29,708 nucleotides of DNA, from IMG/VR virus record IMGVR_UViG_2778261227_000004, one strand, 5' to 3'. Shown here one piece after another: positions 18,105 to 26,237 of this stretch; position 1 is the stretch's first letter; the number at the start of each line of letters is the position of its first letter. The stretch is from a virus. Taxonomy: Duplodnaviria; Heunggongvirae; Uroviricota; Caudoviricetes. Under the pieces are notes generated by a model that saw nothing but the letters and a program-made list of their open reading frames with translations, was not told where the DNA came from and searched no databases. The translations under genes and the position numbers were made by a program.

Positions 18105-18326
18105 TTAAACAGGCAACAACGTGGCTGTTACAATCTCCGCCATATTCGCGTTAAGATCACATTCAACAGAAATTTCTTCATCCGTGGCATCCACTTCATA
18201 TGTCCTGGAATAACATTCCGTGCATTTACCACTGAAGATATCCTTAACCAGAACACGTCCACGCTGCAAAACCCTGAATGGAATCGTTCCGTTAAAGGGC
18301 TTTACGGTTACCAGTAATCTCTTCAT
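18105..18326 (-). CDS. hypothetical 73-aa protein
   Basis: ATG 18326 preceded by GGAGGGG (MKRLLVTVKPFNGTIPFRVLQRG...); family not recognised. Confidence 0.5.
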   Translation of the reverse strand: MKRLLVTVKPFNGTIPFRVLQRGRVLVKDIFSGKCTECYSRTYEVDATDEEISVECDLNANMAEIVTATLLPV

Positions 18327-18499
18327 ATCCCCTCCAGATAAAAATGCCCCTTGCCGCCCGGGCTGTTGTTCAAAGTTCATCCTGATTCGGCAAGATTCAG
18401 AATGTATAAGACAAATTGGCACACACAGCAGAATTTCATGCTTTCTGGACGCTGGCGCATCCTTCATTTTTCAGCGAAATATTCTGCTCTTACAGGCGA

Positions 18500-18682
18500 T
18501 CAGCTCTGCAGACACTGTCGAACACCGTCGACAATTTCGCAGACCTGAGAAGCCGTATCGAAAAGTTGGCGCGCCTTATCCAGGCTGACGCACCCCACCA
18601 ATAAAAAAGGCACCAGTATCGCTACCAGTGCCCATTTTGCCGCCGCTCGCGGCATTCTGTGTGTCCAGTGTTTTCGGCTCAT
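18500..18682 (-). CDS. small predicted lipoprotein (60 aa; lipobox LVGC, mature part about 30 aa with three Cys)
   Basis: MSRKHWTHRMPRAAAKWALVAILVPFLLVGCVSLDKARQLF...: basic N-region, hydrophobic core and L-V-G-C lipobox; ATG is 1 nt after the upstream peptide stop. Confidence 0.5.
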   Translation of the reverse strand: MSRKHWTHRMPRAAAKWALVAILVPFLLVGCVSLDKARQLFDTASQVCEIVDGVRQCLQS

Positions 18683-18683
18683 A

Positions 18684-18797
18684 TCACCACCAACGCACAG
18701 CCCAAATCAGAACAGCGACCGCCACAAGGCGAATTGCAAAGGCCGCAGCCCTTGTCAAATCAAGGCTCGCGGGAGTTTCCACTTCAATACCTTTCAT
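18684..18797 (-). CDS. 37-aa peptide with C-terminal transmembrane helix
   Basis: ATG 18797 with GAGG about 9 nt upstream; MKGIEVETPASLDLTRAAAFAIRLVAVAVLIWAVRWW; stop is coupled to the lipoprotein start. Below the ORF-track size cutoff. Confidence 0.4.
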   Translation of the reverse strand: MKGIEVETPASLDLTRAAAFAIRLVAVAVLIWAVRWW

Positions 18798-18886
18798 AAT
18801 GGACAACCTCAAAAAGAATCTTTTATACTTTCCCACGAGGATTTTCTCCGTACTCACTACTCACAATTTTCTCTTTGACGTGAAAA

Positions 18887-18925
18887 CTAAAAACCCCGGA
18901 CTGTTCCAGCAGCCGGGGTTTTTGC
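18887..18925. terminator. bidirectional rho-independent terminator after the endolysin
   Basis: AAAAACCCCGG...CCGGGGTTTTT: GC stem flanked by A-run and T-run. Confidence 0.7.
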
Positions 18926-19016
18926 TATCTGATGCTGTACCCCTTACTTTCACTCATCGTAACCCCAGAAAAGAGCCTGCGTGAGTTGAGGGTGTTCAGC
19001 ACTTCAGCGTCAGTTT

Positions 19017-19562
19017 TTAAACTGCTACGCGCTCTTTCATCCAGCCGTAGACAAACGACTCGTTGGCCTCGCGTTTCTCTGCCAGCTCCAGATAACGCTC
19101 GCCCTGCGTACAGTTCAGGGCTTTCACCAGTACCAGTTCACCATCCCTGCTGCGATTTTTCAGATATGCCCGTAATGCATTAAGAGTACGCGGCCCGATG
19201 CGTCCATCTGCATCCATATCCGGATAGAGTTTCCCGCGCAGGTTGAAAACGTTCAGCCAGCGCTGAAGCATTCTGGACGCCACAGTTGGCCCCATGTTCA
19301 CGCCCGTATCGCACAACTCTGCGGCAATATCAGGAGACAGGTCCTCAACCTGGTCGAATCGTGGTCCGTACCAGTAGTCTGCCTCGAGTATTTCCAGCGC
19401 CTGCCCACGCGTCAGGTCACGCATATCGCCCTGATAACCGTGTGCACGGGCAACTTTTTCAGTGATGCCCCATTTAGTCGGACCACCTTTATCATCCGGG
19501 TGATTGACGTAACCGCCCTCTTTTCCCAGAATTTCGTCAAAAATTTCATCTTTCGACTTCAT
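19017..19562 (-). CDS. endolysin, glycoside hydrolase family 108-like with C-terminal peptidoglycan-binding domain
   Basis: Start placed at ATG 19562 (MKSKDEIFDEILGKEGGYVNHPDDKGGPTKWGIT...), the N-terminal signature of GH108 (secretion-activator-like) lysozymes; sits after two membrane proteins. Confidence 0.8.
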   Translation of the reverse strand: MKSKDEIFDEILGKEGGYVNHPDDKGGPTKWGITEKVARAHGYQGDMRDLTRGQALEILEADYWYGPRFDQVEDLSPDIAAELCDTGVNMGPTVASRMLQRWLNVFNLRGKLYPDMDADGRIGPRTLNALRAYLKNRSRDGELVLVKALNCTQGERYLELAEKREANESFVYGWMKERVAV

Positions 19563-19563
19563 A

Positions 19564-19842
19564 TCAGCGCCTTCGTAATACAAGGATTTTTGATACGTTC
19601 CCGCGTGCTCGTATCACCAGCACGCAGAACACCAGGTTAATCAGGACGACCAGCCAGTTACCGGGTGGAAAGCGACCACACAGATAACAAAGCGGCGCAA
19701 AGGCATAAAGCAGCATCAGCAGCCAGGCCAGCCACGACATCAGCGGTTTATGTCTCGACTCACCACGACGATAAAAAAAGAGCGTCAGCACGATAACCGT
19801 GCTTAACACCACATTCAGTAATCCGGGAAGGTTACTTAACAT
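19564..19842 (-). CDS. membrane protein in lysis cassette (about 3 TM; holin or antiholin-like)
   Basis: ATG 19842 preceded by GGAGG; MLSNLPGLLNVVLSTVIVLTLFFY...LAWLLMLLYAFAPLCYL...LVVLINLVFCVLVI; overlaps the upstream gene by about 11 nt. Confidence 0.55.
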   Translation of the reverse strand: MLSNLPGLLNVVLSTVIVLTLFFYRRGESRHKPLMSWLAWLLMLLYAFAPLCYLCGRFPPGNWLVVLINLVFCVLVIRARGNVSKILVLRRR

Positions 19843-20221
19843 TACCGCCTCCACCCCGCAGACGGGAGAACAGCCCGGATACCAGCGATGCGATATCCTG
19901 CTGGTGGATGAATGAGAGAATCTTCACCGACACCACCGATACCAGTACCGCGCAAAGCGCGTCGAGAGATGTGCTGTGGAGATTCAGTTTTTCAACCAGG
20001 TAAGACGCCATCACATCCGCCCCCAGCACGCCAACAATGAACGACACCAGAAAATGCGCCGCCACACGCCAGGCTGAAAGCTGCTGCGGCATCGTTGCCA
20101 CAAATAACGCCCCGGCGAACGCACCAAACACAATCCCGAAATCCGTTCCGGTAAACAGCCCGAATACCGTCGCCCCGCCGAGCGCCGCAGCCGTGCCGGA
20201 ACCGGACAAGGGTTCAGACAT
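19832..20221 (-). CDS. putative holin (129 aa, Gly/Ala-rich TM segments)
   Basis: ATG 20221 preceded by CAGGAGA; MSEPLSGSGTAAALGGATVFGLFTGTDFGIVFGAFAGALFVA...; first gene of the lysis cassette. Confidence 0.6.
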   Translation of the reverse strand: MSEPLSGSGTAAALGGATVFGLFTGTDFGIVFGAFAGALFVATMPQQLSAWRVAAHFLVSFIVGVLGADVMASYLVEKLNLHSTSLDALCAVLVSVVSVKILSFIHQQDIASLVSGLFSRLRGGGGNVK

Positions 20222-20310: not shown

Positions 20311-20463
20311 TTATTCAGATTTGCGCAGTAAAGGGCGGAGCACGACCAGCGCCATCGCCACCAGCACGCCATCGGCAAGCACTGACATCAGGCGTCCGGT
20401 GAAATCCACCGCCACTACCAGAAACAGCAGGATGGCAGCCAGTACAAGACGCGCACTTTTCAC
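20311..20463 (-). CDS. 50-aa hydrophobic membrane protein, coupled to the TerB-like gene
   Basis: GTG at 20463 overlaps the TerB-like TGA (GTGA); VKSARLVLAAILLFLVVAVDFTGRLMSVLADGVLVAMALVVLRPLLRKSE. Below the ORF-track cutoff. Confidence 0.4.
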   Translation of the reverse strand: MKSARLVLAAILLFLVVAVDFTGRLMSVLADGVLVAMALVVLRPLLRKSE

Positions 20464-20885
20464 AGGTACTGCTCCAGCGGTAGCTGAAGCGCCTGAGCAA
20501 TTTTCTTGAGCTGTGCTTCTTCATCCGGACCAATGCCATCCTGGTCAGCGATATCCAGACACAGGCACAGCACATTAACTGCGTCATCAGTACCGGCAAC
20601 ATCAGCCAGCTGGCGAAGGGCTTCAGCATTAGCAGAGCGCGGCGACGCTTCATAACGGGCGCGGATATTTGCACTCATTTGTGCAATCTCGCCGGAGAAC
20701 GGTGCAAAGGCAGGAAGTGCTGCAATGGTTTTCTCCAGTACTGCGATTTCTTTCGCGTCGCAGGTGCCGTCAGCGTATGCAATGGAATACGCACCCCAGA
20801 CGGTCGCCTCCACTGCGTCGCGGTTCTCCATCTTCTTCACTTCGGTAATGGCCTTGCGGGTTTTCTTTTTGAAAATACCAAACAT
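20460..20885 (-). CDS. TerB-like (tellurite-resistance TerB / DjlA N-terminal-like) domain protein, 141 aa
   Basis: ATG 20885 preceded by AAGGAAAAG; paired acidic motifs (...AYADGTCDAKEIAVLE... and ...LDIADQDGIGPDEEAQLKKIA...) typical of TerB-like domains. Confidence 0.55.
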   Translation of the reverse strand: MFGIFKKKTRKAITEVKKMENRDAVEATVWGAYSIAYADGTCDAKEIAVLEKTIAALPAFAPFSGEIAQMSANIRARYEASPRSANAEALRQLADVAGTDDAVNVLCLCLDIADQDGIGPDEEAQLKKIAQALQLPLEQYL

Positions 20886-25592: not shown

Positions 25593-25850
25593 ATGCGTAC
25601 AACCCAACAATTCAGCATTACATTAACTAACGAAATGGCTGACATGGTGCGCGCCCGTGTGGCTTCCGGTGCCTATGCATCAGAAAGCGAGGTCATTCGT
25701 GAAGGACTTCGCGCACTGAATGAGCGCGATAAAGCAATCGAAGCGTGGTTAACGCATTCAGCCGCCCCCTCTCTTGATTCTATCCGCGAAAATCCAAACA
25801 ACGGACGCTCCATTTCACAGGTTCGCGCCGAGATTCGATCCGGGAAGTAA
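25593..25850 (+). CDS. parD: type II antitoxin, ParD-like (ribbon-helix-helix)
   Basis: ATG 25593 preceded by GAGG; MRTTQQFSITLTNEMADMVRARVASGAYASESEVIREGLRALNERDKAIEAWL... typical of ParD/CopG RHH antitoxins; 5 nt upstream of a ParE-like gene. Confidence 0.75.
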   Translation: MRTTQQFSITLTNEMADMVRARVASGAYASESEVIREGLRALNERDKAIEAWLTHSAAPSLDSIRENPNNGRSISQVRAEIRSGK

Positions 25851-25855
25851 TCTGC

Positions 25856-26155
25856 ATGACATATGAAGTCATCATTACTCCTGAGGCCGAACAACAAATA
25901 ATCAACCTGCACAGATATATAACGGAGAAAGCAGGGAACGTCATTGCTGACAATTATGCCAATGCGCTTCTTGATTATCTTGATGGGTTTTCTACATTCC
26001 CGCATCGGGGCAATAAACGCGATGATATTCGCCAGGGGATGCGGGTAACTCATTTCCGCCACAGAACGATTATTGCTTTTGCCGTTGATGGCAGAAAAGT
26101 CTTTATTGTCGGTATCTATCATGGTGGGCAAAGTTATGAAACCGATTTCTTATAA
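25856..26155 (+). CDS. parE: type II toxin, ParE/RelE-family
   Basis: 99 aa; MTYEVIITPEAEQQIINLHRYI...RVTHFRHRTIIAFAVDGRKVFIVGIYHGGQSYE typical of ParE/RelE toxins; small, immediately after the antitoxin. Confidence 0.75.
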   Translation: MTYEVIITPEAEQQIINLHRYITEKAGNVIADNYANALLDYLDGFSTFPHRGNKRDDIRQGMRVTHFRHRTIIAFAVDGRKVFIVGIYHGGQSYETDFL

Positions 26156-26237
26156 ACTTTTACCCACATCATTCCGGTGTTAGAATAAACCATCCGCCCC
26201 CTCTCTTACTGGCGGATTCGTAGGCTATATAAATCAA

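Follow-up and report, generated by a model that had tools for sequence, protein, structure and literature searches.

Which gene product opens the outer membrane when the lysis cassette of a lambdoid prophage carries no recognizable spanin genes? This question is raised by a stretch of 29,708 nucleotides (nt) from a virus of the Caudoviricetes (IMG/VR record IMGVR_UViG_2778261227_000004; hereafter the window, meaning this whole stretch). The window represents an Escherichia coli lambdoid prophage and carries all genes of interest on its minus strand, i.e., those for the holins, the endolysin, a membrane peptide of 37 amino acids (aa; orfA, 18684..18797) and a 60-aa lipoprotein (orfB, 18500..18682). 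An original prediction, made from the sequence alone, described the last two genes as a coupled pair that follows the endolysin gene and its bidirectional terminator at the position where the spanin genes Rz/Rz1 normally lie. The described parts (the peptide, the lipoprotein with its lipobox LVGC, the endolysin and the bidirectional terminator) were all found on the minus strand. Nevertheless, the locus consists of two independent elements, not of an obligate pair. The gene orfB replaces Rz/Rz1 in situ, and we consider it probable that its product performs the outer-membrane step of lysis in their place, without a dedicated phage inner-membrane spanin (i-spanin), with orfA as a separate insert.

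A lipoprotein gene at the position of Rz/Rz1

Loci around relatives of orfA and orfB were collected, comprising 80 viral-contig loci, 4 genome loci, and approximately 25 further ones. Cassettes with the order hol8-hol3_7-M15-orfA-Rz/Rz1-d3_98 (L108-113) and those with the order hol8-hol3_7-M15-orfA-orfB (L098-107) differed only after orfA. BLAST homology between the Rz-type and orfB-type cassettes extended through the ATG after orfA and then ended, so that sister cassettes hold Rz/Rz1 exactly where orfB lies, as had been predicted for the position of the unit. In all loci that covered the upstream region, orfB was the gene following the endolysin gene or following inserts located there. Among phages, the closest relatives of the M15 peptidase type (P88) and of the glycoside hydrolase family 108 type (GH108; Shae_phiSM) both carry a DUF2570 i-spanin immediately behind the endolysin. 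On the other side, Megablast matches began at the orfB ATG and extended to window position 18420 (phiP27) or 18343 (pPE4). The non-coding stretch 18343..18499 (minus strand), in which no conserved open reading frame (ORF) was found, thus travels with orfB as the right-hand part of the swapped module. The endolysin slot itself is filled in sister cassettes by an M15 peptidase or a lysozyme instead of GH108. At this locus, one lysis module has been exchanged in situ for a non-homologous module, following the same pattern as the endolysin slot (M15, GH108, lysozyme).

Among approximately 100 orfB loci, tblastn searches with Rz and DUF2570 proteins detected 0 i-spanins of either kind. Over the 3-kb region that was compared, the window shares 99.9% identity with a prophage of strain RM8082. 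The latter is complete at approximately 45 kb; its annotation lists no spanin, and neither a further lipobox ORF nor a type II candidate with a coiled coil was detected in it. A canonical spanin elsewhere in the prophage, which would have spoken against a lysis role, was therefore not found in these scans. Lipobox scans singled out orfB as the sole credible lipoprotein ORF of the 29.7-kb window, and in the complete phiP27 genome its homolog was likewise the sole one across the lysis and late regions. A search of the whole prophage for a hidden i-spanin, in the form of ORFs with a single N-terminal transmembrane segment, returned only spurious antisense ORFs, Lom and DUF1482, and these candidates were rejected. 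For comparison, Rz is present in 277 of 279 Shiga toxin (Stx) phages, and the M15 metallopeptidase endolysin family is confined to two Stx2e phages in the same collection (Pinto et al., PMC8136144). Outside the window, an alternative-frame ORF of 47–55 aa recurs in the 3′ half of the M15 gene (MMLWMLWLMLAARCHGTGLCTRKSRRHLSRLPQSWELPSNG...; L012, L030, L068, L002). It has no lipobox and approximately 12 hydrophobic residues, and probably owes its existence to the endolysin frame.

The gene orfB runs from ATG 18682 to 18500 and encodes a basic n-region, an h-region (ALVAILVPFLLVG), and a lipobox with Cys31, followed by a mature part of 30 aa that contains Cys48 and Cys57, nine residues apart and near the C-terminus. 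The mature part had been described as Cys-rich, which holds only in the sense of three of 30 residues, the acylated Cys included. The protein matched phrog_7528 (E = 7e-37), a PHROG family of unknown function. The ratio of nonsynonymous to synonymous polymorphism (pN/pS) was 0.20 overall and 0.15 in the mature part (53 unique sequences, 49 of which retained the length of 60 codons). G30, C31, C48, and C57 were invariant among 26 homologs from Escherichia, Salmonella, Citrobacter, Cronobacter, and Yersinia. The N-terminal KHWTHR is conserved, and the 60-aa form has its own Shine-Dalgarno sequence. In all homologs, the second position after Cys31 (+2) is V, A or T and the third (+3) is S or T, with no Asp at +2, which is a signature of outer-membrane sorting. 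The mature part has a net charge of −1 and is moderately amphipathic (hydrophobic moment ~0.4–0.65). Its C-terminus is hydrophilic (...RQCLQS), without a second hydrophobic segment. AlphaFold2, supplied with 26 homologs, predicted one long helix with modest confidence (predicted local distance difference test score, pLDDT, 68).

The family is small and has been overlooked in part. An exhaustive hidden Markov model (HMM) search of 1.84 billion representative proteins returned only 23 clusters, all belonging to one small enterobacterial orfB family, and no link to any characterised family. The distant homologs retain the pattern C-x16-C-x8/9-C and a KAR..(F/W) motif. Sequence searches of Pfam, NCBIfam, PADLOC, and PDB gave no match for orfA or orfB. 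Among 5426 complete E. coli genomes, orfB DNA was detected in 304, and a single genome can carry as many as 7 copies. The NCBI Prokaryotic Genome Annotation Pipeline (PGAP) annotates both orfA and orfB in the RM8082 prophage; elsewhere orfB is frequently unannotated or called in the wrong frame (L32 of phiP27; pPE4). In PP818812.1 ("Actinobacillus phage vB_Apl-pPE4"), a 95%-identical orfB is unannotated at 3501-3683, and the surrounding TerB-DUF3927-holin-holin-M15 cassette is E. coli-like, at odds with the stated Actinobacillus host. Overall, both reading frames, whose conservation the original prediction had treated as decisive, are conserved as judged from PHROG matches, PGAP calls, and pN/pS (0.13 for orfA and 0.20 for orfB).

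A homolog of orfB, approximately 92% identical, has already entered the reference census of spanins: the phiP27 protein is listed there as a separated outer-membrane spanin (o-spanin) forming a singleton family (AJ298298, 20706-20861; mature part 30 aa, 83% helical; Kongari et al., 2018, PMC6139136). The census pairs it with an "i-spanin" at 20348-20542, giving a joint periplasmic length of 62 residues, the shortest of the listed systems (PMC6139136). We found this "i-spanin" to be a 64-aa ORF with a TTG start, located antisense inside a 90-aa ORF (20332-20604) that matches phrog_36812. It belongs to no family, and the region is missing from approximately 97 of 100 orfB loci. The 90-aa phrog_36812 gene is itself unannotated in the phiP27 GenBank record. 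The census starts the phiP27 protein at an internal Met (51 aa), the conserved form being 60 aa. From these comparisons, the i-spanin call in phiP27 looks spurious and orfB looks like an orphan o-spanin-like lipoprotein. An o-spanin-like lipoprotein without an i-spanin is already catalogued, but apparently mis-partnered. A literature search on orphan o-spanins and lipoprotein-only lysis returned nothing on the orfB family beyond the 2018 census.

orfA as a separate insert

The gene orfA extends from ATG 18797 to TGA 18684, with GAGG 9 nt 5′ of the start. The C-terminal half of its product is hydrophobic (AAAFAIRLVAVAVLIWAV-RWW) and forms a single segment, leaving approximately 16 residues outside the membrane. 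The peptide matched phrog_4493 (E = 7e-16; a family of unknown function), has relatives in phrog_1115, and gave no match to a holin family in the PHROG and Pfam searches. A pN/pS of 0.13 (5 unique sequences) points to purifying selection. The off-frames of orfA and orfB showed values of 1.0–1.9 and contained stop codons.

The stop of orfA and the start of orfB are separated by 1 nt, and the orfA 3′ end supplies the ribosome-binding site of the next gene. The coupled spacing on which the pairing had been based is therefore present, but it is not specific to this pair, since an identical junction (...CGT TGG TGG TGA T ATG...) joins orfA to Rz elsewhere. In other E. coli prophages, orfA variants (84–86% identity) lie between an endolysin gene (lysozyme or M15) and Rz (Pfam Phage_lysis, 154–155 aa) with embedded Rz1 (PF06085). 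All 12 of the 12 sampled loci that have orfA without orfB contain canonical Rz/Rz1, with orfA located 1 nt upstream (L091-096, L108-113). A piece comprising the terminator, orfA, and Rz matches E. coli genomes on the order of 1000, including O157, O111, and O145 strains. Conversely, orfA is absent from about half of the related orfB loci. Most often (46 loci), orfB follows the holin-holin-M15 endolysin genes after 14 nt that include an AGGTG Shine-Dalgarno sequence, with no orfA between them, and the Lelliottia homolog of orfB lies in a bare holin-GH108-orfB cassette. The coupled functional pair of the original prediction is contradicted by these arrangements.

Other small membrane-peptide genes were found in the place of orfA, namely 45–48-aa relatives belonging to phrog_1115 and a non-homologous 44-aa peptide (phrog_4906). 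Genes for KilA-N and HNH proteins and a 93-aa gene are also inserted at the junction between the endolysin and the outer-membrane disruptor. In some GH108 cassettes (L077, L034, L036, L056, L063, L078, L081, L085; ~7660-8000 of 16-kb loci), the 48-aa phrog_1115 gene, the 44-aa phrog_4906 transmembrane peptide gene, and orfB stand in a row. The gene orfA is one of several inserts at the endolysin/disruptor junction and is indifferent to the gene that follows.

Upstream of the ATG, the stretch 18798..18836 (minus strand) may act as a leader, containing the GAGG Shine-Dalgarno sequence for ATG 18797, or as an N-terminal extension. An in-frame GTG at 18836 would add 13 aa rich in Lys and Arg (GKYKRFFLRLSI; stretch KYKRFFLRLSI), with four extra positive charges. 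This upstream in-frame start is conserved, as GTG here and as ATG in the 48-aa relatives, with conservative substitutions, and the cassette types differ in the leader by one indel of 3 nt, which preserves the frame. Two translational starts, as in holin/antiholin pairs, are possible for orfA. An alignment of orfA cassettes showed conserved GTATAAA and GAGG 5′ of the ATG, and no convincing sense sigma-70 promoter for orfA was found in it. A promoter scan returned 3 promoter-like sites vs. 2.4 expected in shuffled sequences, i.e., no enrichment. One sigma-70-like site on the plus strand (18800-18829; TGGACA-18-TATACT, 10 of 12 matches) is directed at the bidirectional terminator, and its −35 element is not conserved in the 48-aa orfA relatives. 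An Rfam scan of 18300-19100 gave no match above threshold. The best match was the P22 antisense sar RNA (plus strand, 18868-18926) with 24 bits against a gathering score of 43, and was dominated by the terminator hairpin. The plus-strand site and the sar-like match could together mark an antisense RNA of approximately 80 nt just 5′ of orfA, with neither above chance.

The extended orfA frame remains open for approximately 35 codons past the TGA (18576-18683, minus strand), over the 5′ half of orfB. It was rejected as an overlapping gene, since the frame is broken in several homologs and its pN/pS is approximately 1.9. Fusions of 73 aa in which the orfA stop is lost occur in the databases (P0125, P0126, P0137, P0144), and L32 of phiP27 is annotated in this extended frame. 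The orfA element is a self-contained cassette of terminator, leader, and small membrane-protein gene. Being very small, with a single transmembrane segment, a place in a lysis cassette and maybe two in-frame starts, orfA resembles lysis accessory proteins such as the dual-start holin/antiholin pair lambda S107/S105 and Lcc6 of Shewanella LambdaSo, an extra small transmembrane protein of a kind that can be required for lysis (bioRxiv 10.1101/2024.01.23.576932). It differs from them in being non-homologous and in being located after the endolysin and not at the holin position. A role as an inner-membrane accessory or regulator of lysis is weakly suggested.

The hairpin in orfB and the surrounding cassette

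A terminator-like RNA hairpin followed by a U-tract is embedded in codons 17–28 of orfB (18599..18633, minus strand), i.e., in the h-region of the signal peptide. It has the form GGCACUGGUA-GCGA-UACUGGUGCC, then UUUUUUAUU, and folds with −18.5 kcal/mol in the sense direction vs. −10 kcal/mol in the antisense direction, the weaker antisense fold being due to two G-U pairs. Synonymous diversity in the hairpin codons was 0.012 vs. 0.143 elsewhere in orfB (approximately 12-fold lower; Mann-Whitney p 0.002), making this the lowest window of the gene. Homologs from Lelliottia and Citrobacter preserve the hairpin nucleotides although their proteins share only 60–73% aa identity; one change is common, and it is located in the loop. 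In orfB of phiSTEC1575-Stx2k, the substitution L23P converts a G-U pair of the hairpin to G-C. Since the h-regions differ in more distant homologs, the constraint on the hairpin is overlaid on the protein. The region is a case of dual coding within a signal peptide that leaves a measurable signature, the 12-fold loss of synonymous diversity.

The hairpin with its U-tract is most likely an intrinsic terminator. Passage would then be limited to polymerase modified by Q or to closely coupled ribosomes, and termination there would silence the full-length orfB mRNA and the downstream genes in the lysogen. The U-tract (18599-18607, minus strand; orfB codons 25–27, CCU UUU UUA) also reads U UUU UUA, a classic −1 slippery heptamer, at which a −1 shift would yield a product of 35 aa lacking the lipobox Cys, ending in VPFFIGGVRQPG before its stop. 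The hairpin lies upstream and not downstream of the slippery site, so the heptamer is probably a by-product of the terminator.

The order of genes 3′ of the Q antiterminator gene is as follows: a methylase gene, a TerB/DUF3927 pair, two holin-like genes, the GH108 endolysin gene, the terminator, orfA, and orfB. The first holin-like gene (19832..20221, minus strand, PGAP coordinates) opens the lysis cassette and belongs to Phage_holin_8 (PF16931, E = 9e-22; phrog_198, "holin"). The second (19564..19842, minus strand) encodes three transmembrane segments and belongs to Phage_holin_3_7 (PF05449, E = 9e-21; phrog_217, "holin"). The endolysin gene (19017..19562, alternative start 19583, minus strand) combines a glycoside hydrolase family 108 domain (PF05838) with PG_binding_3 (PF09374). 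The bidirectional terminator-like hairpin that forms the conserved 5′ end of the orfA cassette (~18886..18925) has U-runs on both strands and folds with −21.9 kcal/mol on the minus strand (z = −4.6) and −23.5 kcal/mol on the plus strand (z = −5.0). It is kept in every orfA-type locus regardless of the upstream gene.

Directly 5′ of the holin genes, a TerB-family gene and a gene for a 50-aa DUF3927/TciB-like membrane protein (20311-20885, minus strand) overlap by 4 nt. The pair recurs in many related lysis cassettes and looks like a moron pair. A RelE/ParE-ParD type II toxin-antitoxin pair is annotated at approximately 25597-26159, on the strand opposite to its neighbours, in the early-to-late region. 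The RM8082 prophage is inserted between potC and potB (NZ_CP043825.1, ~1254959-1300863); it thus sits within the potABCD operon and splits potC/potD from potA/potB.

Outer-membrane lysis and competing explanations

A conserved gene has replaced Rz/Rz1 at their start codon in a prophage with no other detectable spanin; therefore, orfB most likely carries out the outer-membrane step of lysis. It would be the fourth gene of a holin, holin, endolysin, orfB cassette, transcribed late under Q antitermination. Its product would be exported by Sec, presumably lipid-modified at Cys31, and delivered by the Lol system to the inner leaflet of the outer membrane, since Val and Ser, not Asp, follow the Cys. 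After holin firing and removal of the cell wall by the endolysin, orfB would disrupt the outer membrane. Disulfide-linked oligomers, like those of o-spanins, probably arise from the short amphipathic helix together with the two C-terminal cysteines, and these oligomers could destabilise the outer membrane either directly or via a host envelope component. An envelope-acting lysis accessory, one of the two roles that the original prediction had offered, is thus retained as the best reading for the lipoprotein and not for a coupled pair.

The likeness to known systems is partial. Like o-spanins such as lambda Rz1, orfB is a small lipoprotein encoded right after the endolysin, in the Rz/Rz1 slot, with periplasmic cysteines and a similar size. 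The size argument of the original prediction accordingly applies to the 37-aa peptide, which is far below an i-spanin, but not to the lipoprotein, which is not unusually small, the mature part of lambda Rz1 being 40 aa (PMC6139136). In contrast to lambda Rz1, orfB is helical and not proline-rich, and shows no sequence similarity to it (no Pfam match at E ≤ 0.01, PF06085 included, a family that the Rz1 proteins of sister loci do match). It has the lipobox Cys, the lack of Asp at +2 and the position by the endolysin that are typical of two-component spanins, and lacks a cognate i-spanin gene and, with 30 aa alone, the length to span the periplasm; it is neither embedded in nor overlapping an i-spanin gene, none being present. 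With the unimolecular spanin (u-spanin) T1 gp11 it shares the single gene, the lipoprotein signal, and the occupation of the spanin slot, whereas the u-spanin has a C-terminal transmembrane anchor in the inner membrane and orfB has a hydrophilic tail on a mature part of 30 aa. Colicin lysis proteins, or bacteriocin release proteins (PF02402), are very small lipoproteins with a lipobox and a mature part of approximately 28–35 aa, which permeabilise the envelope without an inner-membrane partner and in which the signal peptide is functionally important. Their activity depends on lipid modification and on OmpLA. The size and lipobox of orfB fit this group, but orfB has two conserved cysteines that they lack and lies in a phage lysis cassette, not in a colicin operon.

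Several points weigh against an outer-membrane lysis role. A helical lipoprotein of 30 residues cannot reach the inner membrane and probably not even the cell wall; therefore, the membrane-fusion mechanism of spanins is inapplicable. Since spanins are dispensable under laboratory shaking conditions, a phage could have survived the exchange of Rz/Rz1 for a gene unrelated to lysis. An internal terminator is odd for a gene that is needed in quantity at lysis. Since the loci were gathered via orfA and orfB themselves, the tally of mutual exclusion between orfB and Rz is not an unbiased census. No Pfam or NCBIfam match links orfB to PF02402. Among searchable texts, a full-text literature search with peptide strings and RefSeq accessions found no paper that gives the sequence or accession of either protein. 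Another small single protein proposed as a spanin substitute in an E. coli phage, the disruptin phiKT gp28, is cationic and antimicrobial-peptide-like (bioRxiv 10.1101/515445), whereas orfB is a lipid-anchored lipoprotein with a net charge of −1 and thus differs from the disruptin.

The alternatives differ in which of these observations they accommodate. It is unlikely, though worth considering, that orfB is a genuine o-spanin that achieves normal spanin fusion with an unrecognised inner-membrane partner, such as a holin-like protein, another phage membrane protein or a host protein. All o-spanin hallmarks that can be read from a sequence are present (lipobox, sorting residues, C-terminal periplasmic cysteines, position), a homolog is listed as an o-spanin, and unconventional inner-membrane partners are conceivable (PMC6139136). 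However, the minimal holin-holin-endolysin-orfB cassette (holin-endolysin-orfB in Lelliottia) encodes no type II membrane protein that has a periplasmic domain, the published phiP27 partner is antisense, family-less, and missing from most orfB loci (~97/100), and the mature part measures 30 aa, with a phiP27 total of 62 aa that is the shortest listed. A coupled minimal two-component spanin, in which orfA would be the i-spanin with a C-terminal anchor and orfB the o-spanin, would suit the 1-nt gene gap and the single hydrophobic C-terminal segment of orfA, and type I proteins with a C-terminal transmembrane domain have been speculated to act as i-spanins (PMC6139136). This pairing was rejected on synteny and is very improbable: orfB occurs alone in 46 or more loci, orfA accompanies complete Rz/Rz1 in 12 of 12, only about 16 residues of orfA extend beyond the membrane, and non-homologous transmembrane peptides occupy the same place. 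That one or both ORFs are chance frames or decaying remnants can practically be dismissed. Both are very short, and orfB is often unannotated or mis-framed, but pN/pS values of 0.13 and 0.20 stand against at least 1.0, with stops, in the off-frames, 60 codons are kept in 49 of 53 sequences, and the lipobox and cysteines are invariant across genera.

Functions outside lysis were weighed separately for the two genes. Small disulfide-bearing outer-membrane lipoproteins of phages, such as Llp and Cor, are known exclusion factors. By analogy with T5 Llp and Cor, orfB might be a late- or lysogen-expressed outer-membrane lipoprotein for receptor masking and superinfection exclusion, or a Bor-like fitness factor. 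Spanin loss is tolerated in some laboratory conditions, and inserts are frequent where the endolysin and spanin genes meet (KilA-N, HNH, the 93-aa gene, orfA). Nonetheless, we regard such a function as quite unlikely. In the commonest layout, the gene starts 14 nt after the endolysin stop behind its own Shine-Dalgarno sequence, a gap too short to hold a promoter, which means that it shares the transcript of the lysis genes. It takes the place of Rz/Rz1 exactly from the start codon onward and does not stand beside them. It shows 0 co-occurrence with Rz in approximately 100 loci, whereas true morons (orfA, KilA-N) do co-occur. It is found with very different virions (lambda-like here, with a contractile tail in phiP27), which argues against a receptor-specific function, and it has no PADLOC match. 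The lysogen-expressed exclusion or toxin-like module of the original prediction is for the same reasons of spacing, together with the internal hairpin, unlikely for orfB. For orfA, a toxin-like membrane peptide expressed in the lysogen from a promoter of its own, perhaps with an antisense RNA, in the style of type I toxin-antitoxin systems and unrelated to lysis, is doubtful but deserves some weight. The moron-like insulation of orfA by its own terminator at the start and the terminator within orfB at the end, the plus-strand sigma-70-like site at 18800-18829 with a possible antisense RNA of ~80 nt, and the sub-threshold sar match would fit. Against it, promoter-like sites occur at chance rate, the antisense −35 is not conserved, no good sense promoter is present, the sar match falls short of the threshold and stems mainly from the terminator hairpin, and orfA always lies within lysis cassettes at one precise junction.

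Approximately 13–15% of phages of Gram-negative hosts lack a recognizable spanin, which raises the question of how such phages get through the outer membrane (PMC6139136; bioRxiv 10.1101/515445). As a tentative extension of the proposed role, orfB could be a third kind of phage outer-membrane disruptor beside spanins and the cationic disruptin: a lone 30-residue, disulfide-bearing lipoprotein that would open the outer membrane without bridging the periplasm, somewhat like the colicin release lipoproteins, and whose expression would be restricted to the lytic cycle by a terminator in its own signal-peptide codons. The orfA-like peptides could similarly be unrecognised small inner-membrane lysis modulators located at the endolysin/disruptor junction in E. 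coli genomes on the order of 1000, including O157. The comparison corrects an entry of the reference spanin census and identifies a gene that automatic annotation misses or mis-frames. Homologous lysis cassettes holding, at the same start codon, either Rz/Rz1 or one 60-codon lipoprotein gene constitute a natural experiment in E. coli. Because orfB lies directly downstream of stx2e in phiP27 and of stx2k in phiSTEC1575-Stx2k, its function bears on the exit of both toxin and phage from the cell.

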